Shown: positions 12,547 to 64,000 of the stretch, piece by piece
Position numbering within the stretch: position 1 is the first letter of the stretch
Layout: each line of letters starts with the position of its first letter
DNA from: Escherichia coli
Lineage (GTDB): Bacteria; Pseudomonadota; Gammaproteobacteria; Enterobacterales; Enterobacteriaceae
Length of the DNA: 64,000 nt
Assembly (NCBI RefSeq): GCF_013315695.1
Contig: NZ_CP054353.1
Direction: 5' to 3' (one strand)
Position numbers and translations under genes: made by a program
Notes under the pieces: model-generated
The model's input: the letters and a program-made list of their open reading frames with translations, nothing else
What the model was told of the DNA's origin: nothing
Database searches by the model: none

Positions 12547-13201
12547 CCGTCCAGAAGAAGATATTTTCACTGGCTGGTATGTCACCAAAATCCAGCAATA
12601 TGACAGCAAAGTCTGGCATTAATACAGCAGATACAAGCAAAGTTTATCATTTTCTGGTGGTAGGAGCGGATGCCTTAACTATGTCAGAAATTACGGTCGA
12701 TGGTGTTAGCGTTGAGAAGGTCAGCGGCTGCGCCAGAGAATTTCTGGTCGTAGATGGCTTTCTCTGCTCGCGTAGTGACTCCACAAAAACCTTCGTCCAT
12801 ACGCGCGACGTTAACGAAATGAGCGCGATGTATTGTGCATCTGGTGCTTCCAATACTGAGTTTTCGGAGTCCATAAAAAAGAGCTTGCCGTTATGCGGCA
12901 ACACGGTTTATGGTTATAAGGCACCTCATAAAACGGGTGCCGGGATTGGCGTCCTGAAAATTCTGAAGGCGACATATGACGCGCCGAGCGTCTTTTTTTA
13001 TGTCGTAGGTCTGACTCACCCATTTTTTGGGCGTTGGTGTATAATCCAGCGCCTTTGTCAATCAATGGTGGCTCAGGCGGGGGCTTCTTCGGAAGCGCCG
13101 GTATCCTTCAGAGCCGGTTACGCCAACCCTGTCTGGGCTACCACCAGCGAAATTGGCGTTTCCGGTGGTAGCGTAACCTGCTATCTGAAGGAGGCTGCCA
13201 C
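12540..13201 (+). CDS. 5' two-thirds of a 355-codon open frame, possibly an Ash-family-like protein. The true 3' end is unresolved.
   Basis: ATG 12540 overlaps the upstream stop (ATGCTAA). The frame stays open to 13607. From 13202 onward better-supported genes occupy the DNA, and 13068..13180 looks like structured RNA. Confidence 0.3.
13068..13180 (+). ncRNA. Candidate C4/CI-like antisense immunity RNA
   Basis: Three hairpins lie directly upstream of the icd-like gene. The first is a UUCG-loop stem at 13083..13096. The second is ccgg/ccgg at 13098..13117; its loop tccttcaga (13104..13112) is complementary to tctgaagga (13184..13192) across the icd-like Shine-Dalgarno. The third is a 9-bp stem, 13137..13145 with 13164..13172. 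The ends of the RNA are not defined. Confidence 0.35.
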
Positions 13202-18326: not shown

Positions 18327-18348
18327 GCTTCTTCATGTGCGTAGAAAA

Positions 18349-18807: not shown

Positions 18808-18901
18808 TGCTATTTGTTTCATATTTTGCAATTACGATGATGAATATTGCGATTTGTGAAACTATAATAACTGTTGTTTTATACAGTTCTAAGGGGGCGT
18901 T

Positions 18902-19063
18902 ATGGCTATTTCAGTAAAGCCGGTATTGATAAGTGAGAAGCAAATGGAAGCGATAAAGAAAATTCAGGAAGAGCAGCGTAAAAAATCAGGAATTGGAGTA
19001 GCGCCAACTCTGCATGAAATTGCACGAGGGTTAATAGATAAGGCGCTGGCAGGCTGTATGTGA
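18902..19063 (+). CDS. Small protein (53 aa), possibly a ribbon-helix-helix type
   Basis: Not in the ORF track because it is under 60 aa. A strong SD (aaggggg) lies 5 nt before the ATG. The sequence is MAISVKPVLISEKQMEAIKKIQEEQRKKSGIGVAPTLHEIARGLIDKALAGCM. Confidence 0.4.
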   Translation: MAISVKPVLISEKQMEAIKKIQEEQRKKSGIGVAPTLHEIARGLIDKALAGCM

Positions 19064-19079
19064 AAATGGATGGCATCGC

Positions 19080-20212: not shown

Positions 20213-21630
20213 TGGCGACATGGCAACTTGGCGGGCTGCCTAGCATGGCACCGCAAAATGATAATGCTCCTCGTTCTTCCGTTCCTCAGCCTGTGCAGTA
20301 TCAGCAGCAGCCAAACGTAGGTTTAATGGCGCTACAGGGGCTAAGAGGCGTTGCTGAGATTAATCAGCAGGCACGTCAACAACAGCGTAAAGCAGAGTTT
20401 CAGAAAGCATATGCCGGGGCTTTTGAGTCTGGAGACAGAAACAAAATGCGCAGTCTTATTTCTGAGTATCCAGAAGAATTTGAAAGCGTTCAGAAAGGGA
20501 TGGGCTTTATTGATGACGACCAGAGAAATTCTATTGGTCATCTTGCGACTAGTGCTCAAATCGCATCTTCGCTCGGAACTGGGGCATTTGGAAAATTCAT
20601 AGCAGATAACGAAGATGAAATGCGTCGTTTGGGAATTTCTCCTGAGTCTGTTGCCGAAATGCATGTTAATGATCCACAGGGATTCCAGCGGCTTGCTGGT
20701 AGTATGGCACTGTTTTCTCTCGGTCATGAGAAGTACTTCGATATCAAAGATCGAATGGAAGGTCGGGATATTGAGCGTGGCAAGTTGGCAGAGACGATCC
20801 GCAGCAATCAAGCCGGAGAAGCACTTCAGGCGAGAGGGCAGGATATTAGCCGAGCAAATGCGTTAACGTCAGCATATGCACCAACAGCCGCAATGCAGAA
20901 TTACAATCAATACGCGCAAATGTTAAAGGCGGATCCAGAGGGGGCTGCGGCATTTGCGGCAGCGGCTGGAATTAATACAAACGCCAAAAAATTAATGAGT
21001 GTTAGAGAAAACGATGATGGCACTGTCACAAAATACTACACAGACGGAAGTGAAGAGCAGGGAAAACTAAACCAGCCAATATCTGGAGATGGGTTTCGTC
21101 CAATAGCTTTGCCAACAGCCCAAAAGATCATGGAAAAGTCGCCAGAAGGGGCTAAAAAAGCTGCTGGATTTGCATACAGAGTTAGGGATGCTCTTGATTC
21201 AATAGATACACTGAAAGACCAGCTTAGCCCACAGCGAGTGGCGATCATTAATAATGCTTTGGGTAATGGGACGCTGGCTAACTTAACGCTCAGCCCAACA
21301 GAGCAGCAATACGTTGTTAATGCTAATGACGCAATAATGGCAATACTCCGTCAGGAAACAGGGGCATCTATCCTACCAGCTGAAATGTCCAAATATTATC
21401 AAATGTATTTCCCTCAGCCTGGTGATTCCACAAAAACCATTGATACCAAGCGTAGGAAGATGGAAAACCAGTTCAATTCGCTGAAAGCTGCTTCTGGTCG
21501 AGCTTATGATGCTTTGCGGGTTATTTCAGCAGTTGACAGAGGAACTTCTTCTTCGTCGCAGACATTGCCGCAATCTGAGCAGGTATCACAGCCAGCAGTA
21601 ATTTTTCTTCACTATGGGGTGATTAGGTAA
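20212..21630 (+). CDS. P22 gp20-like ejection protein; last codons replaced by IS1 sequence
   Basis: 472 aa (P22 gp20 is about 471 aa from memory). TAATG overlap with the gp7-like gene. IS1 starts at 21626. The reconstructed ancestral end is ...HYGVING-stop. Confidence 0.6.
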   Translation: MATWQLGGLPSMAPQNDNAPRSSVPQPVQYQQQPNVGLMALQGLRGVAEINQQARQQQRKAEFQKAYAGAFESGDRNKMRSLISEYPEEFESVQKGMGFIDDDQRNSIGHLATSAQIASSLGTGAFGKFIADNEDEMRRLGISPESVAEMHVNDPQGFQRLAGSMALFSLGHEKYFDIKDRMEGRDIERGKLAETIRSNQAGEALQARGQDISRANALTSAYAPTAAMQNYNQYAQMLKADPEGAAAFAAAAGINTNAKKLMSVRENDDGTVTKYYTDGSEEQGKLNQPISGDGFRPIALPTAQKIMEKSPEGAKKAAGFAYRVRDALDSIDTLKDQLSPQRVAIINNALGNGTLANLTLSPTEQQYVVNANDAIMAILRQETGASILPAEMSKYYQMYFPQPGDSTKTIDTKRRKMENQFNSLKAASGRAYDALRVISAVDRGTSSSSQTLPQSEQVSQPAVIFLHYGVIR

Positions 21631-21640
21631 TGACTCCAAC

Positions 21641-22144
21641 TTATTGATAGTGTTTTATGTTCAGATAATGCCCGATGACTTTGTCATGCAGCTCCACCGA
21701 TTTTGAGAACGACAGCGACTTCCGTCCCAGCCGTGCCAGGTGCTGCCTCAGATTCAGGTTATGCCGCTCAATTCGCTGCGTATATCGCTTGCTGATTACG
21801 TGCAGCTTTCCCTTCAGGCGGGATTCATACAGCGGCCAGCCATCCGTCATCCATATCACCACGTCAAAGGGTGACAGCAGGCTCATAAGACGCCCCAGCG
21901 TCGCCATAGTGCGTTCACCGAATACGTGCGCAACAACCGTCTTCCGGAGCCTGTCATACGCGTAAAACAGCCAGCGCTGGCGCGATTTAGCCCCGACATA
22001 GCCCCACTGTTCGTCCATTTCCGCGCAGACGATGACGTCACTGCCCGGCTGTATGCGCGAGGTTACCGACTGCGGCCTGAGTTTTTTAAGTGACGTAAAA
22101 TCGTGTTGAGGCCAACGCCCATAATGCGGGCTGTTGCCCGGCAT
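21641..22144 (-). CDS. insB: IS1 InsB' frame (made as an InsAB' fusion by -1 frameshift)
   Basis: 167-aa ORF identical in all complete IS1 copies in the window. Confidence 0.9.
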
Positions 22145-22338
22145 CCAACGCCATTCATGGCCATATCAATGATTTTCTGGTGCGTACCGGGTTGAGAAGC
22201 GGTGTAAGTGAACTGCAGTTGCCATGTTTTACGGCAGTGAGAGCAGAGATAGCGCTGATGTCCGGCGGTGCTTTTGCCGTTACGCACCACCCCGTCAGTA
22301 GCTGAACAGGAGGGACAGCTGATAGAAACAGAAGCCAC
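22063..22338 (-). CDS. insA: IS1 InsA
   Basis: 91 aa starting [30 protein letters not shown]. Confidence 0.92.
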
Positions 22339-22611
22339 TGGAGCACCTCAAAAACACCATCATACACTAAATCAGTAAGTTGGCAGCATCACCGAATAAA
22401 CGTATCCTCACGATTGCGCCATTCTTCTTACCGATATTCTGACACACATCATTAACTTTCTATTTTACTCTTTTCTCCACCATAAAATCAATAAAAGCAC
22501 TAACAGTAATTATAAATAAAAACAAAGCCAAAAATCTTGGTTCCAAAACTGGTAACAACTAACCAGTTTAAATATACGCATCAAAATCAGATAAACATTT
22601 GAGGTATTGTC

Positions 22612-24281: not shown

Positions 24282-25143
24282 CTGGGGATGTATCTTCCTG
24301 TTCATTTAAGGTCAACTGCCTGACGTTTCTCTCCGAATATTCCATTATATTAATGTTGACTTGTTGACCAGCTTCGCCCTGTATGCTGGCATCAACTCTA
24401 TTTTAGACTGAACACGTCACTCAGTTTCCTCCCTTTGCGACGCAGCCTGCATTTACACTCAAACTATTAAGATGATAAATGTGGTAAATCTGTTGGTACT
24501 GGCATAAAAACGTTTACGCCACAGGAACGGCCTGATCCATCGGTAACCCCATCGCCGACGTTCGAGTGCCAGTTAGAGTAACGCGCACAGATGACTGAAT
24601 GCAGTGCCCTGGCAAAGAGGCCATCGTTCCTGTGACAACTGGCAGTCTTCGTTTAACTTCACTTAATTTGGCTCTTAGGGGGCTTACCGGACATGATGAC
24701 GTACTTACACCTGTTTAATTTTTCATCACTTATTGGAGTGAACACCCATAACCATTTTGTGCGGCATGTTAACCCATTAAAACACCTTACTGATTGGCAA
24801 ATCATCTTTAATTATGACTCATGATAGTTTTATATTCTATTTCTTATCATTTAAACTTGTTTTTTTACTAGTCCATTACACAACACATTAAGACTATTCC
24901 TAACACCTCAGGGCAAAGTTCCTGGCTAATATAAAATGCAAGTAAGAATTGAACGTTATATTGCCAATAACCTTATGAAACTGAATGTCTTTTTCTTCTT
25001 ATCAAAAAAGCAATATTTTCATTTTTTGTAAATATTGACTTAACCATGGAATTCATTTTCTGTTCACATATTGACACTCATCAGGAAAAAAACATAAATT
25101 TAAACCTAATCGAAATAATTAAAACTTAGGTAATGACTCCAAC

Positions 25144-25647
25144 TTATTGATAGTGTTTTATGTTCAGATAATGCCCGATGACTTTGTCATGCAGCTCCAC
25201 CGATTTTGAGAACGACAGCGACTTCCGTCCCAGCCGTGCCAGGTGCTGCCTCAGATTCAGGTTATGCCGCTCAATTCGCTGCGTATATCGCTTGCTGATT
25301 ACGTGCAGCTTTCCCTTCAGGCGGGATTCATACAGCGGCCAGCCATCCGTCATCCATATCACCACGTCAAAGGGTGACAGCAGGCTCATAAGACGCCCCA
25401 GCGTCGCCATAGTGCGTTCACCGAATACGTGCGCAACAACCGTCTTCCGGAGCCTGTCATACGCGTAAAACAGCCAGCGCTGGCGCGATTTAGCCCCGAC
25501 ATAGCCCCACTGTTCGTCCATTTCCGCGCAGACGATGACGTCACTGCCCGGCTGTATGCGCGAGGTTACCGACTGCGGCCTGAGTTTTTTAAGTGACGTA
25601 AAATCGTGTTGAGGCCAACGCCCATAATGCGGGCTGTTGCCCGGCAT
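25144..25647 (-). CDS. insB: IS1 InsB' frame
   Basis: Identical 167-aa ORF. Confidence 0.9.
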
Positions 25648-25841
25648 CCAACGCCATTCATGGCCATATCAATGATTTTCTGGTGCGTACCGGGTTGAGA
25701 AGCGGTGTAAGTGAACTGCAGTTGCCATGTTTTACGGCAGTGAGAGCAGAGATAGCGCTGATGTCCGGCGGTGCTTTTGCCGTTACGCACCACCCCGTCA
25801 GTAGCTGAACAGGAGGGACAGCTGATAGAAACAGAAGCCAC
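25566..25841 (-). CDS. insA: IS1 InsA
   Basis: Identical 91-aa ORF. Confidence 0.92.
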
Positions 25842-25896
25842 TGGAGCACCTCAAAAACACCATCATACACTAAATCAGTAAGTTGGCAGCATCACC

Positions 25897-28180
25897 GGAT
25901 GATGGACAGCTACGCATCCGGAAAATACAGCTGGAAGAGAGTGAAGATAACGCCAGTGTCAGCGAACAAACTCGACAGCAACTGATGACTCTGGCCAACG
26001 CCCCGTTCAATGAGGCCCTTACCATCCCCCTGACTGACAACGCGCAGCTGGATCTCAGCTTGCGCCAACTGCTGCTGCAGCTGGTGGTCAAGCGCGAAGC
26101 GCTGGGCACCGTACTACGCTCACGTAGCGAAGACATCGGGCAGTCCAGTGTTAACACCCTCAGCAGTAATCTGAGCTATAACTTCGGCGTCTATAACAAC
26201 CAGTTGCGTAACGGCGGGAGCAACACATCCAGCTATCTGTCGCTGAATAACGTTACTGCACTGCGCGAACATCATGTGGTGCTCGACGGCTCGCTGTACG
26301 GGATCGGTAGCGGTCAACAGGACAGTGAATTATATAAAGCGATGTATGAACGCGATTTTGCCGGTCACCGATTTGCCGGTGGAATGCTCGACACCTGGAA
26401 CTTGCAGTCCTTAGGGCCGATGACCGCCATTTCAGCAGGGAAGATTTACGGCCTTTCCTGGGGAAACCAGGCCAGCTCCACCATCTTCGACAGCAGCCAG
26501 TCAGCCACGCCAGTGATCGCCTTTTTACCGGCGGCGGGCGAAGTACATCTCACCCGTGATGGGCGGTTACTAAGCGTTCAGAACTTCACCATGGGCAATC
26601 ATGAAGTGGATACCCGGGGTCTACCGTACGGTATTTACGATGTGGAAGTTGAGGTCATCGTTAACGGTCGCGTGATTAGCAAACGCACTCAACGGGTCAA
26701 TAAGCTGTTTAGCCGGGGGCGCGGCGTCGGTGCACCACTGGCGTGGCAGATATGGGGCGGTAGCTTTCATATGGATCGCTGGTCGGAAAACGGGAAAAAG
26801 ACGCGACCAGCTAAAGATAGTTGGCTGGCAGGTGCCTCGACCTCCGGCTCACTGAGTACGCTTAGCTGGGCGGCAACGGGATATGGATACGATAATCAGG
26901 CGGTGGGTGAAACCCGTCTGACGCTGCCGCTTGGGGGAGCGATCAACGTTAACCTGCAAAATATGCTGGCCAGTGACAGCTCATGGAGCAACATCGCCAG
27001 CATCAGCGCCACTCTACCGGGAGGCTTTAGTTCGCTGTGGGTTAACCAGGAAAAAACCCGCATTGGCAATCAATTGCGACGTAGCGATGCCGACAACCGT
27101 GCAATCGGCGGCACACTCAACCTGAACTCACTGTGGTCGAAGCTGGGCACATTCAGCATCAGCTACAATGATGACCGCCGTTACAACAGCCATTATTACA
27201 CGGCAGATTACTATCAAAGTGTCTACAGCGGTACCTTTGGTACGCTTGGCCTGCGGGCCGGTATTCAGCGCTATAACAACGGCGACAGCAGCGCCAATAC
27301 AGGAAAATATATCGCTCTCGATCTCTCGCTACCACTGGGCAACTGGTTTAGCGCAGGGATGACCCATCAAAACGGCTACACCATGGCAAACCTGTCAGCA
27401 CGCAAACAGTTTGATGAAGGGACCATTCGCACTGTTGGTGCCAATCTGTCACGAGCCATCTCCGGCGATACCGGTGATGACAAAACTCTCAGTGGTGGGG
27501 CGTATGCACAGTTCGACGCTCGTTACGCCAGCGGAACGCTGAACGTCAATAGCGCGGCGGACGGCTACATCAATACTAATTTGACCGCCAACGGCAGCGT
27601 CGGCTGGCAGGGTAAAAACATCGCTGCCAGCGGGCGGACCGATGGCAACGCTGGGGTGATATTCGACACTGGCCTGGAGAACGATGGTCAGATCAGCGCC
27701 AAAATCAACGGGCGGATTTTCCCGCTTAACGGCAAGCGTAACTATCTCCCGCTCTCTCCCTATGGAAGATATGAGGTGGAGTTACAGAACAGCAAAAACT
27801 CACTCGACAGTTACGATATCGTCAGCGGTCGCAAAAGTCATCTGACTCTCTATCCAGGCAATGTCGCTGTCATTGAGCCAGAGGTGAAGCAGATGGTTAC
27901 CGTCTCCGGTCGTATCCGTGCGGAAGACGGCACACTGCTGGCTAACGCACGGATTAACAACCATATCGGCCGAACCCGAACCGATGAAAACGGCGAGTTT
28001 GTCATGGACGTGGATAAGAAATACCCCACTATCGATTTTCGCTACAGTGGCAATAAAACCTGCGAAGTGGCACTGGAACTCAACCAGGCGCGCGGTGCCG
28101 TCTGGGTCGGTGATGTGGTCTGCAGCGGCCTCTCATCGTGGGCGGCGGTGACGCAGACAGGAGAAGAGAATGAGAGTTAA
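25897..28180 (+). pseudogene. ecpC: E. coli common pilus usher EcpC, 5'-truncated by IS1
   Basis: The first codons of ORF 25883..28180 are IS1 sequence. The remainder (...[20 protein letters not shown]... to the C-terminus) is followed by ecpD and ecpE. No ecpR, ecpA or ecpB is present. Confidence 0.85.
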
Positions 28181-32608: not shown

Positions 32609-32751
32609 AAAACACTCGATTAATCTCGTGTTAATGCCATCACCTACGACCATTACTAATTGATTGAATCTTATAGAAAAAATTATCATTTTCTATGCGT
32701 TACAATCAATTTTCACATTACAAACGCTCCGACACTTTAGCCGGGGAGTTT

Positions 32752-34029
32752 ATGAGATACAAGCCCAATCAATACATAATCTGTGATTCTTACGGTAACT
32801 ACTATTTGAGGATCACGTTGCCTGTGTATATGCAGCCCTTTTTTGAAGGAAAAAGGACGTTTGTCAGAAGTCTGCACACAAGTAGTCTTCGTGTTGCACG
32901 TAGAAAGCGTGATCAGATTGCAGATGAATACCATTGTCTACGGGAGAGTGTCGCCCCTGTAAACAGCACAATAGAGAACACGCTGGAACTGTTACGCAGT
33001 AAGGCTAAATACGCCAAAACAGCTACCAGAATGCAAGATACAGCGTCTTCGTGTCCGTCATTGCTTAAAATTCTTGAAATCTACCTGACAATTAACAGCA
33101 CGAAGAAGAAGCCAGCCACTTTAGCTAAGGCAAGAAAAGCGGTAGAGATGTTTCTCTCCTACCGTAAAAAGCCTGATATTGCATTGCAAGATGTAAGCCG
33201 CACCACTGTTACAGGCTGGATAGAACACATGCAAAAAACCCTTTCACAACAATCAATTGCAAATTATATCAGCCCAATGGCCCAGCTATGGGAGTTAGCT
33301 TCATCACGTTACCACGATGCGCCAGAAAGGGCGCTCTCCCCCTGGCGAGGGCATAGGCTTGATGTGGCACAAAGTAGAGAGAGCTACGAGGCATTTTCTA
33401 ACAAAGAGCTATTGCAGGTGTTGCAAGTATTTTCCGGTGATTCAGCAGAAAACAAAGAAATGATGGCTTTGTGTCTTATCGGTGCTTATACAGGTATGCG
33501 GATCAATGAGATAGCAAGTCTCACAATAGACGATGTGAAAGAGATCGAAGGTGTGCTGTGTTTTGAAATCACACAGGGAAAAACGAAAGCTGCGGCACGT
33601 CTTGTGCCTGTGCATAGCCTTATCACTCCGTTGGTGTTGTCGCTGCGTGAAAAGCCTCATAATGGCTTTTTGTTCTATCACGCCAGCATTACAGAGCGTG
33701 CTGATGGTAAACGTTCCACGTGGCACACGCAGAGATTTACAAGAGCTAAACGAAAGGCTTTAGGGGAAAAGGGAACAGAAAGGAAGGTGTTTCATTCTCT
33801 GAGACACGGAGTAGCACAGCTTCTTGATCGAAATCAAATTCCAGAAGACAGGATCGCCCTTCTCCTGGGCCATACACGCGGCAATACAGAGACATTCCGC
33901 ACATATAGCAAGAATGCAGCTTCTCCAGTAGAGCTTAAAAACTATATTGAGCTTCTACGCTACCCTGAAATAGAGAAAGGCTTATCAATCAATAAAAAAT
34001 CAAATTTAATGCGCAAAACAACGCCATAG
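32752..34029 (+). CDS. Tyrosine recombinase/integrase
   Basis: ORF track 32695..34029. I prefer ATG 32752 (MRYKPNQYIICDSYGNYYLRITLP), which follows the SD ggggag. The C-terminus has HSLRHG...LLGH...Y motifs. Confidence 0.85.
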   Translation: MRYKPNQYIICDSYGNYYLRITLPVYMQPFFEGKRTFVRSLHTSSLRVARRKRDQIADEYHCLRESVAPVNSTIENTLELLRSKAKYAKTATRMQDTASSCPSLLKILEIYLTINSTKKKPATLAKARKAVEMFLSYRKKPDIALQDVSRTTVTGWIEHMQKTLSQQSIANYISPMAQLWELASSRYHDAPERALSPWRGHRLDVAQSRESYEAFSNKELLQVLQVFSGDSAENKEMMALCLIGAYTGMRINEIASLTIDDVKEIEGVLCFEITQGKTKAAARLVPVHSLITPLVLSLREKPHNGFLFYHASITERADGKRSTWHTQRFTRAKRKALGEKGTERKVFHSLRHGVAQLLDRNQIPEDRIALLLGHTRGNTETFRTYSKNAASPVELKNYIELLRYPEIEKGLSINKKSNLMRKTTP

Positions 34030-34110
34030 ACGCAATAAAGAGGCTTCAACATAGATTGGTAGCCTCTTTTATAATTACATCGTTACAGAGCGTTTTAGAG
34101 GCATTTACGG

Positions 34111-34824
34111 CTATTCCTGTTTAAAGGCAGGAGTAATAGTGTCTTCACCTTCACTACTTGATTTTTCAGTGTTAACACGTTTTTTCATATTCGCCCCGAT
34201 GTTCTTAGATGGCTGTGTTTTGATAGCTACAGTGTTTACAGTACCATAAGAAACTAATCTTATTTGTTCAAAGCTAAGATCAAATACCAGGGATTCGCTT
34301 GCCTCTTCTGTGTATTCGATGCCTGTTAAAACAACGTTCTCAAAAGTTTTATTTTCTGTAACAAGAAGAAAAGGCTGTCTACTGTCCATAATCTGATTCA
34401 AGTAGTCTATAGCTAATGATCTTCTGTTCCCGTTCACCCCTGCACTCTTTAACAAGCCAGGATCGCTTTTAATCGGTGTTTCAGTGATACGCCCTTTAAG
34501 AGAGAACTTATTGTTTTTAATTTGAACGTGATCAGACACAGTAGCACCATTTTCTACGGGGTAGCTTGTGACATCTGCCGAACGTCTCACGTTCACATCG
34601 TCAACACTATCAAAGGCCAGTGCCATATAATTTTCATAAACGTCATTACCAGAAGATGCCAAGCCACTGGTAACAATAGCAAATCCGTTCTCTCCTTTTG
34701 TTTTATTAGCTTTGCTATTTTCGTTTTTTGTAGAATTTATATCTTGTTCTGCTTTGTAAACAGCCTGAACGTGTTGTTCTGGAGTATTTGCTGCACGTAT
34801 GGTTAAAATCCCGGCGGTCGCCAT
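34111..34824 (-). CDS. Phage tail protein, Dit-like (distal tail / baseplate N-terminal domain)
   Basis: 237 aa. ...RSADVTSYPVENGATVSDHVQIKNNKFSLKGRITETP...FLLVTENKTFENVVLTGIEYTE...LVFDLSFEQIR resembles Dit-like tail proteins. It follows a tape-measure-like ORF. Confidence 0.45.
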   Translation of the reverse strand: MATAGILTIRAANTPEQHVQAVYKAEQDINSTKNENSKANKTKGENGFAIVTSGLASSGNDVYENYMALAFDSVDDVNVRRSADVTSYPVENGATVSDHVQIKNNKFSLKGRITETPIKSDPGLLKSAGVNGNRRSLAIDYLNQIMDSRQPFLLVTENKTFENVVLTGIEYTEEASESLVFDLSFEQIRLVSYGTVNTVAIKTQPSKNIGANMKKRVNTEKSSSEGEDTITPAFKQE

Positions 34825-34846
34825 AATAATAATTTTCCTTGTAATG

Positions 34847-35799
34847 TTATGGCGGGAATTCCCCGCCGTTGGATTGTCCTGATAAGCTGGTTAATGTTAA
34901 TGATTTCAAGAAGCTATCCCGACTTGCTCTCGCTGTAAAATCCACATAATCGCTCAATCGTCCGGTGTCTGATTCGATAGTTAGCGGCACTTCTGTTACC
35001 ACTTCAAATGTAGGATTCAGATTAAACACAGGAGATAAATTATAAGCTGGAGTTGTCATTGCAAGATTATTTAAAGCACCCTGTTTGAGATTGGTTATCG
35101 GTGCTTCATTGACTGACATTTTTACATCTGACACAGAAGAATTATCATCGAAAAGCAATCCCTTAATTGTGTTAAAGAGAGAATGACTATTATCAGGTGT
35201 AGTTGTTGCAGTGCCAGCGCCTTTATATTGATTAGGAACGAGATTAGAAAGATTCTGTTTCATCCCTTCATTGCTTAATGGCGGTGCATCACCCATATTT
35301 TTCTGAATAGCATCTGTCTTATCATCATTACGATTAAACCAGTTTACAATCTTCATAATAGCTTCAAAGAGACTTCCTGTAGCTTCTCCCAGCTTCGTAA
35401 AATACGGAGTGAGATTAGAAAGGTTTTTCATAAACTCTTCCGTTACTTTTGGATCGAGAGATTTCATAAAGCCGTCTACGAATGCTACTTGTCTTGCATC
35501 AGAAAGCTGTGAAAGCTGTCTGTTTAGTTCTCTGAATTTAACAATAGAGTCTTGCTGTGTTTCTGTTAGCCATTTTCCAGAGGCTTTTTGCTGATTAATA
35601 CTTTCTTGTACATCTTTAACGGAACGTTGCCAATATTTTGACGTAAGCATCAAATCATCGCCCAGGTCTTCTAAACGTTGTCCAATTTGGGAGTCTGAAA
35701 ACCCTTTTTTCATCATTCCATTAACAGCCTTAGAAATTAATCCAGCCGGATTATCAGCAAATTTTTTAAGGTCGCTTTTGTTAATAACACCGATGTTTA
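34847..35799 (-). pseudogene. C-terminal part of a tape-measure-like tail protein, cut by IS2
   Basis: The first residues (MSGDSGGQS) of ORF 34847..35827 are encoded by the IS2 end. The rest is Gln/Asn/Ser-rich and helical. No upstream half is found beyond IS2. Confidence 0.4.
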
Positions 35800-35890
35800 T
35801 AGACTGGCCCCCTGAATCTCCAGACAACCAGTATCACTTATTTAAGTGATAGTCTTAATACTAGTTTTTAGACTAGTCATTGGAGAGCAG

Positions 35891-36256
35891 ATGATTGATG
35901 TCTTAGGACCGGAGAAACGCAGACGGCGTACCACACAGGAAAAGATCGCAATTGTTCAGCAGAGCTTTGAACCGGGGATGACGGTCTCCCTCGTTGCCCG
36001 GCAACATGGTGTAGCAGCCAGCCAGTTATTTCTCTGGCGTAAGCAATACCAGGAAGGAAGTCTTACTGCTGTCGCCGCCGGAGAACAGGTTGTTCCTGCC
36101 TCTGAACTTGCTGCCGCCATGAAGCAGATTAAAGAACTCCAGCGCCTGCTCGGCAAGAAAACGATGGAAAATGAACTCCTCAAAGAAGCCGTTGAATATG
36201 GACGGGCAAAAAAGTGGATAGCGCACGCGCCCTTATTGCCCGGGGATGGGGAGTAA
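35891..36256 (+). CDS. insC: IS2 OrfA (InsC)
   Basis: Starts [33 protein letters not shown] at ATG 35891. The ORF track begins upstream at 35846. Confidence 0.92.
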
Positions 36257-37119
36257 GCTTAGTCAGCCGTTGTCTCCGGGTGTCGCGTGCGCAGTTGCAC
36301 GTCATTCTCAGACGAACCGATGACTGGATGGATGGCCGCCGCAGTCGTCACACTGATGATACGGATGTGCTTCTCCGTATACACCATGTTATCGGAGAGC
36401 TGCCCACGTATGGTTATCGTCGGGTATGGGCGCTGCTTCGCAGACAGGCAGAACTTGATGGTATGCCTGCGATCAATGCCAAACGTGTTTACCGGATCAT
36501 GCGCCAGAATGCGCTGTTGCTTGAGCGAAAACCTGCTGTACCGCCATCGAAACGGGCACATACAGGCAGAGTGGCCGTGAAAGAAAGCAATCAGCGATGG
36601 TGCTCTGACGGGTTCGAGTTCTGCTGTGATAACGGAGAGAGACTGCGTGTCACGTTCGCGCTGGACTGCAGTGATCGTGAGGCACTGCACTGGGCGGTCA
36701 CTACCGGCGGCTTCAACAGTGAAACAGTACAGGACGTCATGCTGGGAGCGGTGGAACGCCGCTTCGGCAACGATCTTCCGTCGTCTCCAGTGGAGTGGCT
36801 GACGGATAATGGTTCATGCTACCGGGCTAATGAAACACGCCAGTTCGCCCGGATGTTGGGACTTGAACCGAAGAACACGGCGGTGCGGAGTCCGGAGAGT
36901 AACGGAATAGCAGAGAGCTTCGTGAAAACGATAAAGCGTGACTACATCAGTATCATGCCCAAACCAGACGGGTTAACGGCAGCAAAGAACCTTGCAGAGG
37001 CGTTCGAGCATTATAACGAATGGCATCCGCATAGTGCGCTGGGTTATCGCTCGCCACGGGAATATCTGCGGCAGCGGGCTTGTAATGGGTTAAGTGATAA
37101 CAGATGTCTGGAAATATAG
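36214..37119 (+). CDS. insD: IS2 OrfB transposase (InsD)
   Basis: 301 aa starting [30 protein letters not shown], with a DDE integrase core. Confidence 0.92.
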
Positions 37120-37432
37120 GGGCAAATCCATTAACACATAAGCAATCAGTATGATTGGTTAGGTGATTACTCTTACTGCGCACAGCGCAATAGATTTCTT
37201 CGTGGGCGTTACCGCCAACGAAGTTACACGAAGAAAGTAACGCTTTGCTTTCGGTGTGAGCGGAACGGGCCAGCCACGAAGCCCGAAAGGTAGCGGAGTA
37301 AGGCTGCTTGCCAGAGAGTGAAGCTAACGCCGGAAGGCAAAAGATCATATATATAGATATAAAGAATATTATTATTATGATCTAATTAATAATCTAATAT
37401 AGTTTTATTAATAGTCTTATTGTAGTTCACAG

Positions 37433-41150: not shown

Positions 41151-41185
41151 TGCTACGCGCGCGCGTACTTGTCCCGAAATACCAG
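41151..41185 (+). repeat. (CG)n-palindrome repeat, copy A (tgctacgcgcgcgcgtacttgtcccgaaataccag)
   Basis: It contains the 14-bp palindrome tacgcgcgcgcgta. It is closely similar to 42561..42593. Confidence 0.7.
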
Positions 41186-41221
41186 AAACCGCCAGCCAGA
41201 GGATGATTTCCCTCTGGTGGT

Positions 41222-41503
41222 CTACCTTTGCCTCTTGCCGCCATTTAACCGGAAGGCGTTACCGTTCGGTTGCGCTATCCCCATGCGGTGTTGCGTTTCG
41301 GTAACAGCTTTATGCAGGTCGCCAAATTCCTCAACCTTCACGGGCGGGCGCTTCACGTTCTCCAGACACGTTTCACGGCGGCGCTTTATCCATTCCCGAT
41401 CATCGTCCTCGGTGCATAACAGCATGACTTCCATCCATCGTGCGGCAGCTCTCCGGTATAGCCCTTTTGACTCCAGCTCTTCAGCTTTCCTGTCCCTTAT
41501 CAT
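41222..41503 (-). CDS. PerC-family transcriptional activator
   Basis: 93 aa. MIRDRKAEELESKGLYRRAAARWMEVMLL matches the PerC/Pch N-terminal signature. Confidence 0.75.
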   Translation of the reverse strand: MIRDRKAEELESKGLYRRAAARWMEVMLLCTEDDDREWIKRRRETCLENVKRPPVKVEEFGDLHKAVTETQHRMGIAQPNGNAFRLNGGKRQR

Positions 41504-41537
41504 TTCTGCCTCTCAGATTATATAGATAAGCAAAAAG

Positions 41538-41682
41538 GTGTTGGTTCAGTTGGTTCAGTTGGTTCAGTTGGTTCAGTTGGTTCAATTTGTAAAGATTGTT
41601 GTTTTTATTGTGTTTTTTCTGAAATATTGAACCAACATCAACTCATTTTGAACCAACACAGCCCAGCTCTGAACCAACAACA
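41538..41682 (+). repeat. Iteron origin-like structure B
   Basis: Five tandem gttggttca units (41540..41584), then atttgtaaaga and an AT-rich spacer, then three inverted tgaaccaaca units. This is the same architecture as 18349..18455. Confidence 0.6.
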
Positions 41683-41780
41683 CAGCGATAGATTTGTGAT
41701 TGGTCCGTTATTTTCTGGCTGATATTTGAGCGTATAACAGTGTTATACAGTGGTATACTGTATGGATATTACTCACTGAT

Positions 41781-42236
41781 ATGGTCTTTGCAATGAGCAA
41801 ATCTAATCTGGTCGCGTTCCGCATCCCATCTGAATTGCAGGATGAGTTTAATCGGTCTGTTCTCGCTTCTGGAGGAGATAAAACCTCCTGGCTTGTTGAT
41901 GCGATTCGCATGAAGCTGGGGCAGCCGGAAAAGTCTATTGATTCACGAATGCTTGGGCTGGTGGAGCGCATGGAAAAAGCCGCTGCGTCGCTTATTGCCG
42001 GAAAGCCGAACATCCCACCAAAACCATATAACGAAACGGCAGTTATAAAGATCATTGCCGATACCATCCAACAGGGATTTGATAATGGGCGTGTGATAGC
42101 TGAACGGATCAATGAAGCAGGCTATCAAACAAAAGCTGGTAAAGCGTGGGATAAAGATATTTACAGCGCGTGGAAGCGTCAGGGAAGCAATGCTGAAAAG
42201 CTAAAAGCAGTGATTGATTGTAAGGTCAGCGTATAA
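41781..42236 (+). CDS. Putative DNA-binding protein (N-terminal ribbon-helix-helix, C-terminal HTH-like)
   Basis: 151 aa. SNLVAFRIPSELQDEFNRSVLASGGDKTSWLVDAIRMKL is CopG/Arc-like. An inverted repeat, atacagt-ggtat-actgtat, lies just upstream (about 41738..41756). Confidence 0.5.
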   Translation: MVFAMSKSNLVAFRIPSELQDEFNRSVLASGGDKTSWLVDAIRMKLGQPEKSIDSRMLGLVERMEKAAASLIAGKPNIPPKPYNETAVIKIIADTIQQGFDNGRVIAERINEAGYQTKAGKAWDKDIYSAWKRQGSNAEKLKAVIDCKVSV

Positions 42237-42315
42237 ACATGAGTGCCCATTGGAAAGTTGCTTGGGCCAATACCTTTATACACCAGCAGGTAGTGACGAT
42301 AGGTGAGGATCAGAT

Positions 42316-42537
42316 ATGAAAGGCAGAACGCCACACATTGAACATCAAGCCAACCACTTCCCTGATGTTCGCAATGAGATGATTGCCATTCGCGGTGATA
42401 TGCACGGATTGGAGCGTCGAATTATTGATAAGATTGATGAAAATAGAGATAAGGCCAGTGAAAATCAAAAGTGGATCATCGGCCTGTTGATTTTATCAAT
42501 TCTTATCCCGCTACTTATCGCATTGGTCACAAAATGA
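42316..42537 (+). CDS. XhlA-like small membrane protein
   Basis: 73 aa. It has a coiled-coil N-terminus and a single C-terminal TM helix (WIIGLLILSILIPLLIALV), as in the XhlA family. Confidence 0.5.
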   Translation: MKGRTPHIEHQANHFPDVRNEMIAIRGDMHGLERRIIDKIDENRDKASENQKWIIGLLILSILIPLLIALVTK

Positions 42538-42560
42538 ATATCCAATGTGTATGCTGTCGA

Positions 42561-42593
42561 TGCTACGCGCGCGTACTTGTCGCAAAATATCAG
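42561..42593 (+). repeat. (CG)n-palindrome repeat, copy B (tgctacgcgcgcgtacttgtcgcaaaatatcag)
   Basis: It contains the 12-bp palindrome tacgcgcgcgta, 24 nt after the XhlA-like stop. Confidence 0.7.
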
Positions 42594-42800
42594 GCAAAGG
42601 CCAGATTCAGAAAGTCGTGATAACCACCAGCACAACATGAGAGGTCATGTAACGCGATTTATCACACCAGATACATGTGATTGGTGTACCCGCATAAAAC
42701 ATCGTCATAGCGCGTCCTGTGCGCATATACGCCGATAATCAACACATCACCACCACTCTGTCTCATGTAGAGAACAGTTTTATGGTATCCCCCGCCATCG

Positions 42801-42948
42801 TGTGCGTACTGGTCGGACGCAGTTGCAAAAAATTTTGCAACTGATACCCCTCGCGCGCGTACTGGTCACGAAATTGGTGTTTTGCTGTGGCAGTGATATC
42901 AGAAAAATCTTCCTGTTTCACATAAAGCGGATATGCGCGTACTGTAAC
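42801..42948 (+). repeat. Three further GYGCGTACTKGT copies plus a 10-bp inverted repeat
   Basis: The copies are gtgcgtactggtc (42802), gcgcgtactggtc (42854) and gcgcgtactgtaa (42935). The inverted repeat agttgcaaaa-aa-ttttgcaact lies at 42821..42842. Confidence 0.6.
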
Positions 42949-43058
42949 GGCCCCATCAACTGGGAGCGGACTTGAAATCCCGACCCAAGCTATGTACCAA
43001 ATGCCATGTCTTGGATATATGATGATTGCCATTCTAAACAACGCTAAAGGGGGTTGGT

Positions 43059-43673
43059 GTGAGCAGAAAAGATACTAAAGAATTGCTAACTATCTGCATG
43101 GTGTACTTTTCAATTTATTTTTGTGCATACATGATAGTCCCAGATGAGTTTGAACATGGCAGTATTATTTATTCCATAACATTCTATTTTTTAGAGCTAA
43201 CACCAATTTTGGCTATCCTTTTGGGAATACATATTTATTTTTCCTTAAAAAAAGAATCGACTAATTGGGAGAAGGTATGGAGAGACAGAGGATTTCTAAC
43301 ATCACCTAAAGATGATGCATATGAGAGTGATTTTTCTGACTTTATAACAAACTACTACTCCAGCGAACAATTCAAAAATAGACTGTCTGATGTTTGGGAA
43401 ACAGCAATGTATTCCATAGGGATTATATTATTGATACTTACTGGTATTGCTCAATATGTTTTTAACATTGACTTATCATTAAATCCTGAAAATTTAATAT
43501 CGCCATTGATTTTTGGTGAGATATTGATCTTCTCATTCGGAATTTTCTTGAGTGTTGTTCTCTGCTCATTATGCAAGCTACTGACTAACAGGTATCCGGG
43601 TGAAGCAAGGAGAGCAAGAAAGGCAAATCCATATTATCTTTTATTTCCTAATGGAGACAGCAGAGATATCTAA
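43059..43673 (+). CDS. Four-TM membrane protein, moron-like (sits where P22 carries sieA)
   Basis: 204 aa with a GTG start after a strong SD (aaaggggg). It has four hydrophobic segments and is visibly AT-rich. It is divergent from the gp16-like gene in the ancestral orientation. Confidence 0.6.
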   Translation: MSRKDTKELLTICMVYFSIYFCAYMIVPDEFEHGSIIYSITFYFLELTPILAILLGIHIYFSLKKESTNWEKVWRDRGFLTSPKDDAYESDFSDFITNYYSSEQFKNRLSDVWETAMYSIGIILLILTGIAQYVFNIDLSLNPENLISPLIFGEILIFSFGIFLSVVLCSLCKLLTNRYPGEARRARKANPYYLLFPNGDSRDI

Positions 43674-43692
43674 GCCATCCATGGCTAACCAG

Positions 43693-45798
43693 TTATTGAG
43701 CTTCTTTTTGTGATGCCTGTGCGACTCTGGTGAGCGATTGTGTGACCGTACTGATCGCTCTGTCATATGCTGTGCTACCTTTTGGCGTATTTGCCAGACG
43801 TAACAAGGCATTTCGTATAACAGGGCTTTCGTATGCCTTCGCTGCTCCGCCTACGGCACCAGCAGCAGGAACAACAAACGCAGCCGTTTTTAGCATCCCC
43901 GCTAATACTGCTGCGTTTATGATGCCACCACCAACTAACAATCCATAAAGCTGCTGACCATTTAAGTTTTGAACGTTCGCTTTTGCCGCGTGTCTTGTAT
44001 CGTTGAGGTATTTAATAACGCCGTCCAGTTCCTTTCCATGTACGCCTTTAAAGAAAGTTGCTGATTGCTTCCTGTTCCGGTGTAACGCATTAATAAACTT
44101 CTCAACACTGATATTTCCAGACGGATCAGTCGCCTTATCTACAGCATTCTGAACTATGGCTGCTCGTGCGTTTTGCCTACCATTGTCATCCAGAAGCCTG
44201 TAAAGCTGAGAACGTTCTGATGGGCTTTGGCTAAAAACGAGTTTTGTTACATCCTCAGGCGTGGCCTTACCGCTGGCTATTGCCTTTTGAACGCGCGTTC
44301 TTCCCATCATGTCATTGAATTTAGACCATGACCGATCAACCCTTGCCATATTAATGGCTTCGTCTGCTCCAAGATTTTTGGCTACGGCTTTTTTCATATC
44401 CGCCGTATATGCCTTGTAGATAATATCGCTGGCTTTCTGGAGCGTATCTTTATCAACAGTGTCAGATGACGCCATAAATCGCTTTCGAAGATCGGTTCTG
44501 TTTTCCCTCGCCAGACGCAGGTCATTTGGTCCGCTGGTGATATCGTCTTTAAATTGCTGCAAGACTTTTACCGCGGCTCTATCCTGAGATTTGCCCGGGC
44601 GGCTTAACACGGCAATCTGATTGTCGATAGCTTTTACCGTGTTTGAGAGATCGACAGGGGTATCCCCCATAGCGTCAATTATGCGGTTATATCGCTTTCC
44701 TGCTGCCTCAATGAATTTTTGTTGCCCTTTAGTCGCAGATTCATAAAGCTGTTTATCAGAAATGCCACCCAGACCATCGCTAAATGTTCTGACTAAATTT
44801 TCTCGTGCTTGTTGTTGATTCAGCCGATTCTTACCGGTTCCAAAAAAAGGAACTCTTTCGCCTAATGTCTGAGCCTGACTCTGCATAAAGGTTTTATCTT
44901 TCAGCATGTCACTGGTCATTAACGGCAGATTTCTTTCCGATGCAAAGTTGACAGCAGCCTTTGCTTCAGGCGACATATCACCACGAACAGCCCTCGAAAC
45001 CGCACTCGCTGTATTTTCCAGCCCCTTACCAATACCACCAATGCCAGCAGAAATTACCGTTTGTAACGGATCAATATCTTCTCCACCAGCAAGGCTGGTG
45101 GCTCCCTGTAGTGCTAAATCTGTAGCTGCTGATTTTCCTATGGCACCAAGCACCGTTCCAGCCCTGCCCGCTGGTGTAAACGCCAGCGCATTAGCCAGAA
45201 ACGATGCCACGTCTTGCGGCGATAAACCCGGCTTGTTCAGAGCATAATCACCGGATGGCAGGGAAACGATAGTGTTACCCTTCTCATCCTGCCTTAATTT
45301 CGCTCCCATGCTCTGAAGAATCTTTTCCTGAGATGCGTCAGAGCCGAAAAGTTGAGACCATCGAGCTTTTAGAGCACCCATGCTGAGTGAGGTTAACTCT
45401 GGGGCAAGGTCGACATTTTGCAGTCTCTCCATCTCTGGAGTCATTCGGCTTTCGCCTGTTATAGCATCGCGCATCGCAGCCCCAAGACTGGCTCCCTGTT
45501 CTGCTGAACGCTCAAGCCCCTCTCTTTGCTGAGTAGCTAACTTTGCATACCCTGACGCAAGAGAATTATCAGATGATGTATGTTGAATATTTTGAGTTGC
45601 TGATTGGGATCGGTCTATTTCATTCGTTGATGGTAGTGGATAGGCAGCATAAAAAGCCTGCTTAGCCTGCGCTACACTTTCTCCGGCTTGCGGGGCCACG
45701 ACTTCATTGAAGTATTGCTCCTGAGCCTGCGCTTTTTGTTCTGGTGCTAACGCCTGATACTGTGGAGAGGCGATAACATCTTTCCATGCTTTAGCCAT
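43693..45798 (-). CDS. P22 gp16-like ejection protein
   Basis: 701 aa starting MAKAWKDVIASPQYQALAPEQKAQAQEQYFNEVV. It is Ala/Gln/Gly-rich. In the reconstructed ancestral sequence its ATG overlaps the gp20-like stop (ATGGCTAA). Confidence 0.55.
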   Translation of the reverse strand: MAKAWKDVIASPQYQALAPEQKAQAQEQYFNEVVAPQAGESVAQAKQAFYAAYPLPSTNEIDRSQSATQNIQHTSSDNSLASGYAKLATQQREGLERSAEQGASLGAAMRDAITGESRMTPEMERLQNVDLAPELTSLSMGALKARWSQLFGSDASQEKILQSMGAKLRQDEKGNTIVSLPSGDYALNKPGLSPQDVASFLANALAFTPAGRAGTVLGAIGKSAATDLALQGATSLAGGEDIDPLQTVISAGIGGIGKGLENTASAVSRAVRGDMSPEAKAAVNFASERNLPLMTSDMLKDKTFMQSQAQTLGERVPFFGTGKNRLNQQQARENLVRTFSDGLGGISDKQLYESATKGQQKFIEAAGKRYNRIIDAMGDTPVDLSNTVKAIDNQIAVLSRPGKSQDRAAVKVLQQFKDDITSGPNDLRLARENRTDLRKRFMASSDTVDKDTLQKASDIIYKAYTADMKKAVAKNLGADEAINMARVDRSWSKFNDMMGRTRVQKAIASGKATPEDVTKLVFSQSPSERSQLYRLLDDNGRQNARAAIVQNAVDKATDPSGNISVEKFINALHRNRKQSATFFKGVHGKELDGVIKYLNDTRHAAKANVQNLNGQQLYGLLVGGGIINAAVLAGMLKTAAFVVPAAGAVGGAAKAYESPVIRNALLRLANTPKGSTAYDRAISTVTQSLTRVAQASQKEAQ

Positions 45799-45862
45799 TA
45801 ATCACCCGGTGATGCTGCCAACTTACTGATTTAGTGTATGATGGTGTTTTTGAGGTGCTCCA

Positions 45863-46138
45863 GTGGCTTCTGTTTCTATCAGCTGTCCCTCCTGTTCAGC
45901 TACTGACGGGGTGGTGCGTAACGGCAAAAGCACCGCCGGACATCAGCGCTATCTCTGCTCTCACTGCCGTAAAACATGGCAACTGCAGTTCACTTACACC
46001 GCTTCTCAACCCGGTACGCACCAGAAAATCATTGATATGGCCATGAATGGCGTTGGATGCCGGGCAACAGCCCGCATTATGGGCGTTGGCCTCAACACGA
46101 TTTTACGTCACTTAAAAAACTCAGGCCGCAGTCGGTAA
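45863..46138 (+). CDS. insA: IS1 InsA
   Basis: Identical 91-aa ORF. Confidence 0.92.
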
Positions 46139-46560
46139 CCTCGCGCATACAGCCGGGCAGTGACGTCATCGTCTGCGCGGAAATGGACGAACAGTGGGGC
46201 TATGTCGGGGCTAAATCGCGCCAGCGCTGGCTGTTTTACGCGTATGACAGGCTCCGGAAGACGGTTGTTGCGCACGTATTCGGTGAACGCACTATGGCGA
46301 CGCTGGGGCGTCTTATGAGCCTGCTGTCACCCTTTGACGTGGTGATATGGATGACGGATGGCTGGCCGCTGTATGAATCCCGCCTGAAGGGAAAGCTGCA
46401 CGTAATCAGCAAGCGATATACGCAGCGAATTGAGCGGCATAACCTGAATCTGAGGCAGCACCTGGCACGGCTGGGACGGAAGTCGCTGTCGTTCTCAAAA
46501 TCGGTGGAGCTGCATGACAAAGTCATCGGGCATTATCTGAATATAAAACACTATCAATAA
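46057..46560 (+). CDS. insB: IS1 InsB' frame
   Basis: Identical 167-aa ORF. The frameshift A-run ttaaaaaac lies within the insA/insB overlap. Confidence 0.9.
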
Positions 46561-46608
46561 GTTGGAGTCATTACCCGTTTATTCATAATAAATCTCCTGA
46601 AAGTTTAG

Positions 46609-63322: not shown

Positions 63323-63549
63323 GAGAGATATGAAGTCTGGACATAAACCTGAAGTCGGCATACGAGGTTGTGAATAGCGTTAAGGACAACCTGACTTAAC
63401 CCTGTTCCGTCATGGTTATGCTGCTCTTCTGTAAATATCCTGACATTAATAATGCCAGGATATTTACAGTGAAAAAGACAGGAATCCATTCCTGGGTGAT
63501 GCTGCCAACTTACTGATTTAGTGTATGATGGTGTTTTTGAGGTGCTCCA

Positions 63550-63825
63550 GTGGCTTCTGTTTCTATCAGCTGTCCCTCCTGTTCAGCTACTGACGGGGTG
63601 GTGCGTAACGGCAAAAGCACCGCCGGACATCAGCGCTATCTCTGCTCTCACTGCCGTAAAACATGGCAACTGCAGTTCACTTACACCGCTTCTCAACCCG
63701 GTACGCACCAGAAAATCATTGATATGGCCATGAATGGCGTTGGATGCCGGGCAACAGCCCGCATTATGGGCGTTGGCCTCAACACGATTTTACGTCACTT
63801 AAAAAACTCAGGCCGCAGTCGGTAA
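63550..63825 (+). CDS. insA: IS1 InsA
   Basis: Identical 91-aa ORF. Confidence 0.92.
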
Positions 63826-64000
63826 CCTCGCGCATACAGCCGGGCAGTGACGTCATCGTCTGCGCGGAAATGGACGAACAGTGGGGCTATGTCGGGGCTA
63901 AATCGCGCCAGCGCTGGCTGTTTTACGCGTATGACAGGCTCCGGAAGACGGTTGTTGCGCACGTATTCGGTGAACGCACTATGGCGACGCTGGGGCGTCT
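63744..64000 (+). CDS. insB: IS1 InsB' frame (3' end outside the window)
   Basis: It has the same offset from the IS end (249 nt) as in copy 3. Confidence 0.85.

Follow-up and report, generated by a model that had tools for sequence, protein, structure and literature searches.

Short intergenic repeats of an EcCIMP1-type island in Escherichia coli are fragments of Sf6-type terS and putative mimics of helper packaging signals

The window analyzed here, a 64-kb stretch (64,000 nucleotides) of the Escherichia coli contig NZ_CP054353.1, contains a phage-inducible chromosomal island (PICI) of the EcCIMP1 type, and five short repeats with a run of alternating C and G in its right half raise the question of where such sequences come from and what might recognize them. 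The first-pass annotation, made from the sequence alone, had described five plus-strand copies, and our counts agreed. The exact 13-mer GYGCGTACTKGTC had four matches in the window, all on the plus strand (starts 41161, 42569, 42802, and 42855), against an expectation of 0.14 by dinucleotide shuffling, and four matches were reached in 0 of 100 shuffles. The fifth copy, at 42935, was weaker, having only GCGCGTACT in common with the GYGCGTACTKGTC copies and diverging after that. No further good match to the motif was found within the window beyond these five (A to E), and the repeat family is real and non-random. Copies A and B, previously said to share about 33 nt, do share sequence, in fact over approximately 50 nt with small indels, and every copy contained an alternating purine-pyrimidine tract of 11-15 nt. 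The RefSeq-annotated genes of a 99.7% identical genome (NZ_LR898874) overlapped none of the copies. The motif as first reported is the plus strand of the window; the copies are read here on the minus strand, which is the operon sense of the right half of the island.

Read in this sense, the copies spell F[RC]D[KQ]YA(R), which is complete in A, B, and D and shortened in C (SDQYAH) and E (LQYAH). F[RC]D[KQ]YA is the most conserved motif of the Sf6-type small terminase (TerS), PF20901. In viral contigs, TTYGNGACMAGTACGCGCG was matched 90 times; 31 of the matches were within intact Sf6-type terS genes (...VFRWL..EFRDQYARAREAQAD...; confirmed by a custom hidden Markov model (HMM) with E 1e-25 to 1e-49) and 59 non-coding. 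The phages HK620, Kapi1, and HF4s have one common TerS, each being 100% identical to the same 140-aa query; for Kapi1 the identity extended over all 140 residues of this Sf6/HK620 query, and its annotated coding sequence has two additional N-terminal residues. Codons 54-60 of terS in these three phages are GAT TTT CGC GAC AAG TAC GCG, and terS of HK620 and Kapi1 contains TTTCGCGACAAGTACGCG. Copy A was identical to nt 165-182 of HK620/Kapi1 terS at 17 of 18 positions, and copy B matched the same gene at 14/14 plus ATTTT. A second E. coli prophage allele of terS (L035/L037), GAG TTT CGT GAC CAG TAC GCG, carries TTTCGTGACCAGTACGCG and was identical to copy D at 18/18. The degenerate K of the motif as first reported is the first base of Lys AAG vs. 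Gln CAG, and the degenerate Y distinguishes Ala GCG from GCA; since the prophage terS alleles differ at those codons, the degenerate positions of the motif are codon polymorphisms. The copies are short non-coding pieces derived from one segment of Sf6-type terS (codons ~54-62, EDFRDKYAKA). The (CG)n run, which had been taken as a palindrome prone to form Z-DNA and as the point of the motif, consists of GCG-CGC codons (Ala-Arg) of this segment, and the same runs are present in intact terS genes.

The copies are not relics of whole Sf6-type terS genes, a candidate that was rejected on the length of the matches (~18-50 nt). The custom Sf6-type HMM aligned to copies A-E at positions 53-65 only and without significance, and tblastn on the copies found nothing longer than 8-12 aa. 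Searches of the phage nucleotide collection with 2-3 kb and 56-66-nt queries returned no enterobacterial phage match, because the identity to terS covers only ~18 nt. The refutation named in the first-pass annotation, namely that the copies are parts of a conserved protein-coding gene, applies by half: they derive from such a gene, and in the island they are non-coding fragments. A 92-aa open reading frame (ORF) across C-E (42763-43041, minus strand) was rejected as a gene: variable sites were distributed 5:6:7 over the codon positions, relatives contained indels, and PHROG and Pfam matches were negligible.

The distribution of the copies was then compared across genomes. Copies were present in ~566 of 5,426 E. 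coli genomes, at a median of 2 places and in no setting other than this island (in the window, too, only within the island), which upholds the view that they are not REP or ERIC elements; they were never found in the phage nucleotide database. Among species-representative genomes, a 21-nt pattern gave 21 matches, mostly chance in GC-rich genomes, and the FRDQYAR peptides in these matches were discarded as evidence, being imposed by the search pattern itself. The 41 related islands contained 82 cores, all in operon sense and in many independent non-coding contexts (37 distinct ones). Up to three intergenic core sites occurred per island, namely after the antirepressor gene (site 1), in a conserved non-coding block, and after perC, and the cores were often tandem units 26-90 nt apart. 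When three terS alleles were compared with the 41 islands, 93 of 112 short high-scoring segment pairs (HSPs) started in nt 160-179 of the 423-nt gene, and a word-11 search placed 69 of 72 HSPs in ~nt 160-190. Recurrence in the islands is limited to the core segment of the 423-nt Sf6-type terS.

The gene set and the tRNA-Thr/proA-yagU site match those of EcCIMP1, and the locus is an EcCIMP1-type PICI; both the island family and its helper are identified. EcCIMP1 (Pick, Stadel & Raivio, ISME J 2025) is located between proA and yagU and carries int, AlpA, antirepressor, primase, DNA-transfer, and PerC genes (PMC11773190). It is induced and specifically transduced by the P22-like phage Kapi1, which did not transduce a chromosomal marker; it lacks terminase and capsid genes, its packaging mechanism was declared unknown, and the paper makes no mention of a pac site (PMC11773190). 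Likewise, annotation and marker maps revealed no terminase or capsid genes in the island studied here, and no Rpp or TerS gene was identified in it. Specific transduction by a helper with Sf6-type TerS (Kapi1) is thus on record for the island family (PMC11773190) and not for this broken copy. The island resembles EcCIMP1 in its chromosomal site, its gene set (including DUF2824 and, in some variants, a second alpA), and its P22-like helper with Sf6-type TerS. It differs in the RHH, 73-aa, and SieA-like cassettes and in being split by an IS1-associated inversion.

In many pac phages, Sf6 included, the packaging signal (pac) lies within terS (bioRxiv 10.1101/851345), and that of P22 occupies 22 bp of gene 3 (PMC9611059). 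With pac commonly inside terS, a satellite with just that segment could be recognized by the helper TerS. On balance, we lean towards the repeats being arrays of putative helper pac mimics; the binding of TerS and the packaging function of the boxes are what we infer from the sequences. A terminase-less satellite would have copied just the TerS-recognition segment of the helper terS. Following induction, excision, and replication, helper TerS would bind the boxes on island concatemers and recruit TerL, which would cut nearby and allow a headful of ~43 kb to be filled (the P22 headful is 43.4 kb). Carrying Lys and Gln alleles plus several TerS families may widen the usable range of helpers. An earlier proposal had the repeats as operators of island regulators. 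No copy lies upstream of alpA, and because the motif sequence is also part of helper terS, it is the helper TerS that is indicated as the binding protein. The core sequence is unique in the HK620 genome, as expected of a pac site. Two anecdotal concordances were also noted: EcCIMP1-like alpA_1 islands carry Lys-form cores, as does Kapi1, and in strain 03_3013 the island copy D is of the Gln form and so, probably, is the resident Sf6-type terS, judged from H184, whose identity to HK620 (86.6%) equals that of the Gln-type allele L035.

The islands also contained boxes from other terS families. P22 pac is annotated at NC_002371.2 positions 4-25, within gene 3 (GAAGATTTATCTGAAGTCGTTA, encoding EDLSEVV). 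A second box (box2; Table 1), recurrent beside the cores of the islands and present in the window, matched 20/20 within two intact gp3-family terS genes (L120 and L124), exactly at the residues aligned with EDLSEVV. These two genes are 64-66% identical to P22 gp3 (E 1e-64), and the box there, GAAGATTTTTCTGACATCAC, is near-identical to box2. E. coli gp3-type prophage alleles (EGFSDVT and EGFCGVT; PF16677) showed the same variation as the box2 copies of the islands. In the other half of the island, a gp3-type relic was 87% identical over 38 aa to the gp3-type TerS of an ST131 prophage (E 7e-21). A third box family, GAGTTTTCGGAGTCCATAAAAAAGGGC, matched codons 48-56 of a third TerS type at 22-23 of 24 nt. 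At 19 loci it formed the closing unit of the site-1 array, in every case on the sense strand; in L108 and L121, five units of two families were packed into 160 nt. Three unrelated terS families therefore yield short non-coding pieces, one of which coincides with the only experimentally mapped pac among them. We tentatively suggest, regarding it as nearly as likely to hold as to fail, that EcCIMP1-type islands are multi-specific pac libraries, drawn from several alleles of terS in three or more unrelated TerS families, by which a satellite without terminase would be packaged by any P22-like helper that happens to infect, with the corollary that the core would mark the Sf6/HK620-type pac at codons ~54-62.

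Table 1. Positions and strands of the repeat copies, related boxes, and reference features in the window.
Feature	Position	Strand	Remarks
Copy A	41151..41185	-	19-mer core 41160-41178, FRDKYARA* on minus strand; 37 nt 3' of perC stop codon
Copy B	42561..42593	-	core 42568-42586, FCDKYARVAS; left edge of conserved block
Copy C	42802..42820	-	degenerate core GACCAGTACGCACAC, SDQYAH
Copy D	42848..42879	-	core 42854-42872, FRDQYARE
Copy E	42935..42948	-	most degenerate core CAGTACGCGC, LQYAH
Palindrome CAGTTGCAAAA-AA-TTTTGCAACTG	42821..42844	.	between copies C and D; 2 of 24 columns variable among islands
Conserved non-coding block	42557..43062	-	contains E, box2, D, palindrome, C, and B; variable gene cassettes on both flanks
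Box2 GGAAGATTTTTCTGATATCAC, EDFSDIT	42893..42913	-	fragment of gp3-type (P22-type) terS, position homologous to mapped P22 pac
gp3-type terS relic	12690..12803	-	114 nt, begins at pac-homologous codons; other island half, site 1, after AntA gene
Third box TTTTCGGAGTCCATAAAAAAGAGC, FSESIKK	12861..12884	+	22/24 nt identical to codons 49-56 of third TerS type (L034; P22-like prophages of E. coli)
perC-family gene	41222..41503	-	between copies B and A; same transcription sense as copies
P22 gp16-like injection protein gene	43693..45798	-	last helper-derived gene before block; sets sense of this half

Several observations weigh against packaging mimicry. The core matches helper terS over 18-24 nt only; identity to the E. 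coli helper alleles ends after GTACGCG, and 3' of the core the islands have CGCGCG where these alleles have AAGGCA. We take Sf6 pac to be in the gene part that encodes the DNA-binding domain, and the core lies at the C-terminal edge of this domain. Across 38 clusters of non-coding copies, the ~21-nt core was kept and the flanks had no shared information, a conservation across contexts that is partly an ascertainment effect, since the related loci were gathered by pattern search; the uniform orientation of the cores is unaffected by this. Within E. coli, the cores were no better conserved than the rest of the block (7.5% variable columns), a comparison in which footprinting is uninformative on account of too few variable columns. 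Two relatives had no site-1 cores. The gp3-type relic, like its counterpart in L100, is antisense to the island operon. Box2 matched P22 pac itself at only 16/22, which is chance level across the whole window, and as this direct match is not significant, the argument was placed on positional homology in intact gp3-type genes. Finally, transduction of EcCIMP1 by Kapi1 is very inefficient, at ~4.8e3 particles/ml (PMC11773190).

The same sequences could instead be inert debris, that is, decayed remnants and recombination scars from repeated exchange of terS between islands and phages, without present function. The neighborhood of the copies does bear signs of recombination. The conserved block had sharp homology limits at both ends and 95-99% identity in ~545 E. 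coli genomes. In three relatives with different cassettes, homology resumed exactly at 42557, 4 nt before copy B, and ended at 43062. On the left side, homology broke at 41420, 41658, 41679, or 42203, and in no case at copy A. The idea that A and B bracket an exchanged module thus stands for B, which sits at a cassette junction, and fails for A. Recombination scars, another of the first suggestions, have some support at B and in strain 2014C-3338, where a B/D hybrid copy goes with deletion of the 287 nt in between; A is no module boundary. A genuine terS pseudogene of the Terminase_2 type, carrying a frameshift (L002 10865-11395, L003 10664-11114), is joined to copy B in most relatives; in its place, the window has the RHH/73-aa cassette. 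The fused translation of the pseudogene matched phage TerS at E 1e-7 and 80 PF03592 proteins, its match to a custom HMM was at 7.5e-20, and Klebsiella and Enterobacter P22-like prophages hold its closest intact relatives. Either the ancestral island had a TerS gene of its own, which is possible, or the pseudogene may be a third kind of pac-bearing fragment.

This pseudogene, the 114-nt gp3-type relic, the position of copy B, the B/D deletion, the degeneracy of copies C and E, and the equal conservation of cores and surroundings within E. coli are all what inert debris would lead one to expect. Random decay should, however, leave assorted parts of terS, and the 93 of 112 HSPs fell on one ~25-nt segment. 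Decay also does not account for 82 of 82 cores in one orientation across 37 contexts with up to three intergenic sites per island, nor for two further unrelated TerS families being represented by equally short pieces, one at the mapped P22 pac position. In addition, the variation between copies tracks the polymorphisms of helper alleles and not random drift. We consider inert debris unlikely.

Alternatively, the boxes could be recombination anchors, where identity to terS lets phage recombinases fuse the island into helper concatemers near pac, and the cointegrate is packaged in the first headful. The boxes are recombinogenic, as the B/D hybrid indicates, they mirror several helper alleles, productive cointegrates would require uniform orientation, and helper-embedded satellites exist (PMC10111431). 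On the other hand, an identity of 18-24 nt is a very short stretch for homologous recombination to be efficient, other DNA common to the islands and HK620 is scant (~130 nt at 84-88%), and terS::island junctions were absent from all loci examined, which makes anchors improbable. Interference with the helper is very improbable. Plus-strand transcripts with B-E would act as antisense to helper terS mRNA, or the arrays would titrate TerS as decoys, damping helper packaging in either case. B-E do lie between same-strand genes (end of the 73-aa ORF at 42537, start of the sieA-like gene at 43059), where they would be antisense to terS codons 54-62, and EcCIMP1 contributes to immunity against Kapi1 (PMC11773190). 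Copy A and the site-1 arrays, however, lie among sense-orientation genes only, so they would give no pairing with terS mRNA. Sigma-70 promoter and intrinsic terminator scans gave no sites near the copies or in the block, Rfam, scanned over 39-44 kb with a permissive threshold, gave no relevant match, and the title of the published study has the island aiding helper replication (PMC11773190).

Least credible is a role as Z-DNA-forming elements or as operators bound by a protein of the island itself (RHH, PerC, or AlpA), for which the copies are suitably intergenic, repeated, similarly oriented, and equipped with the alternating tract, given that alpA has no copy upstream even though AlpA is reported to be autoregulatory (PMC11773190), that most islands keeping the copies lack the RHH gene, which is a swappable cassette, that the CG run is explained by codons of terS, and that the palindrome is not kept in C, D, and E. 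Nor are the copies iterons. The true iterons of the island have a different sequence, GTTGGTTCA, of which five tandem 9-nt units at 41540-41593 are followed by three inverted copies, TGAACCAAC (41627-41682), between perC and the RHH gene. Relatives have a 77-78% similar stretch in front of their primase gene (L002 17640-17753). The tandem and inverted units, which differ from the reported motif, are candidate sites of a replication origin or of a regulator.

Putative pac mimicry can be set beside known packaging systems. P22 pac (Wu/Casjens) is a short asymmetric sequence inside a terS coding region, and its size of ~20-25 nt agrees with that of the repeat unit; box2 corresponds to this segment in a different gp3-type allele (EDFSDIT vs. 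EDLSEVV). The island boxes differ in lying outside any terS, in non-coding satellite DNA, in several copies and from mixed TerS families. Satellite P4 carries the cos site of P2, EcCICFT073 has a helper-like cosN plus Rpp, and SaPIbov5 has helper pac and cos. These satellites, like the island, lack their own terminase or TerS and rely on a cis packaging signal (putative in the island). They have a single cos or pac region, often with a redirecting protein, whereas the island has arrays of very short, gene-derived boxes from 2-3 unrelated TerS families and more than one allele. The SPP1 pac (pacL-pacC-pacR) has repeated boxes across the promoter and the 5' end of terS, which is similar to the repeated, putative TerS contact boxes of the island over a few hundred bp. 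In relatives, copy B is moreover fused to the 5' part of the relic of a Terminase_2 (SPP1 G1P family) terS. SPP1 has multiple TerS contact points (PMC9611059); in the island, no helical phasing of the boxes was seen when their spacing was inspected by eye, and the boxes come from TerS families other than that of the adjacent relic. That satellites without terminase or TerS are packaged via a cis site recognized by the helper terminase is already known (PMC9026076), and the island family itself is published. What appears to be new is the form of the putative signal, in which minimal boxes derived from the genes of several TerS families, and from several of their alleles, are set in arrays.

EcCIMP1-type islands are found in roughly one-tenth of complete E. 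coli genomes, in pathogens and commensals, and have no terminase, capsid-remodeling, or Rpp-like genes. Should the boxes prove to be pac mimics, they would explain specific transduction by P22-like phages, and the helper range of an island would be predictable from sequence alone by the TerS families and alleles represented. The boxes would then also be a natural footprint of minimal recognition sites for three TerS families, TerS-pac recognition being notoriously hard to define in vitro, and a compact tool to make plasmids or cargo packageable by chosen phages. If inert, they would still record repeated, very local exchange of terS between satellite and helper.

Some further observations concern the boxes and the TerS types from which they come. 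Box2 is 15 residues from the DQ of copy D, the same distance as from EDLSEVV to YDQKF in gp3 (window 42862-42948, minus strand), an equal spacing which suggests that a gp3-type fragment and copy D were joined at the GACCAG present in both. P22-like prophages of E. coli and Klebsiella (L034, L125, L126, L033, L029) contained at least three TerS N-terminal types. A C-terminal tail, GKDGGAIQIETSPMSTLFGK, is common to the Sf6-type, the Terminase_2-type, and an unclassified TerS type. The E. coli gp3-type alleles (L125, L126) have a different, P22-like tail, and the islands sample fragments of several TerS types. Two Pasteurellaceae-like loci (L013 1386-1607, from Rodentibacter, and L055 477-1313) contained 30-35-nt fragments of Sf6-type terS (EFCDQYARARE), each preceded by a hairpin and T-run. 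This similarity suggests that terS fragments also occur outside Enterobacteriaceae, possibly in other satellite families. The inverted repeat between copies C and D, first noted as 10 bp at 42821..42842, is present and consists of 11+11 nt with a 2-nt spacer.

Intact relatives begin on the left with tRNA-Thr/proA, int, AlpA, AntA/Bro antirepressor, 'ash', and primase (TOPRIM-DUF927 or DUF5906). These are followed by DUF2824, the P22 gp7-, gp20-, and gp16-like ejection genes, and an opposite-strand variable gene (SieA-like or other). The right part comprises the 500-nt conserved non-coding block, a variable cassette, perC, a 61-aa ORF, pRiA4b-ORF3, and yagU. In the window, the island lies in two halves, the left at 9025-21597 (plus strand) and the right at 45798-40076 (minus strand). 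Four IS1 elements were found (21626-22394, minus; 25129-25903, minus; 45807-46575, plus; 63495-64000, plus), and the inverted pair at 21626-22394 and 45807-46575 directly adjoins the gp20-like gene, which ends at 21597, and the gp16-like gene, which starts at 45798. As this inverted IS1 pair lies at the gp20/gp16 junction, the PICI was split by IS1 insertion and a ~24-kb inversion, and this island copy is probably immobile.

Two cargo slots flank the conserved block (41680-42557 and 43062-43675), and their contents vary among strains (L002-L004, L026-L028, L113), including RHH plus 73-aa holin-like proteins, a second AlpA, ImmA/IrrE, Abi, small HTH, SieA-like, or 145-aa proteins. Near pRiA4b, a third slot held a Panacea-domain pair or a Doc toxin. 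The slots look like defense or exclusion hotspots. In the interval that separates yagU from the right half of the PICI (32695-37350), a second integrase (444 aa), a 'phage baseplate protein' gene, a truncated ORF, and IS2 appear to be the remains of another integrated element.

Two gene annotations also deserve comment. The 355-aa 'ash family protein' called by the Prokaryotic Genome Annotation Pipeline (PGAP; 12540-13607, plus strand) has its Pfam Ash domain at residues 124-232 only, and the antisense gp3-type relic and the third-type box both fall within its initial 120 codons; its start was probably called too far upstream, and site 1 is probably non-coding. The RefSeq 'nicotinic acetylcholine receptor subunit beta' is an 87-aa PICI protein (L127 6784-7047; NZ_LR898874.1 4085783-4086046; window ~13791-14054), and this name is almost certainly an annotation error.

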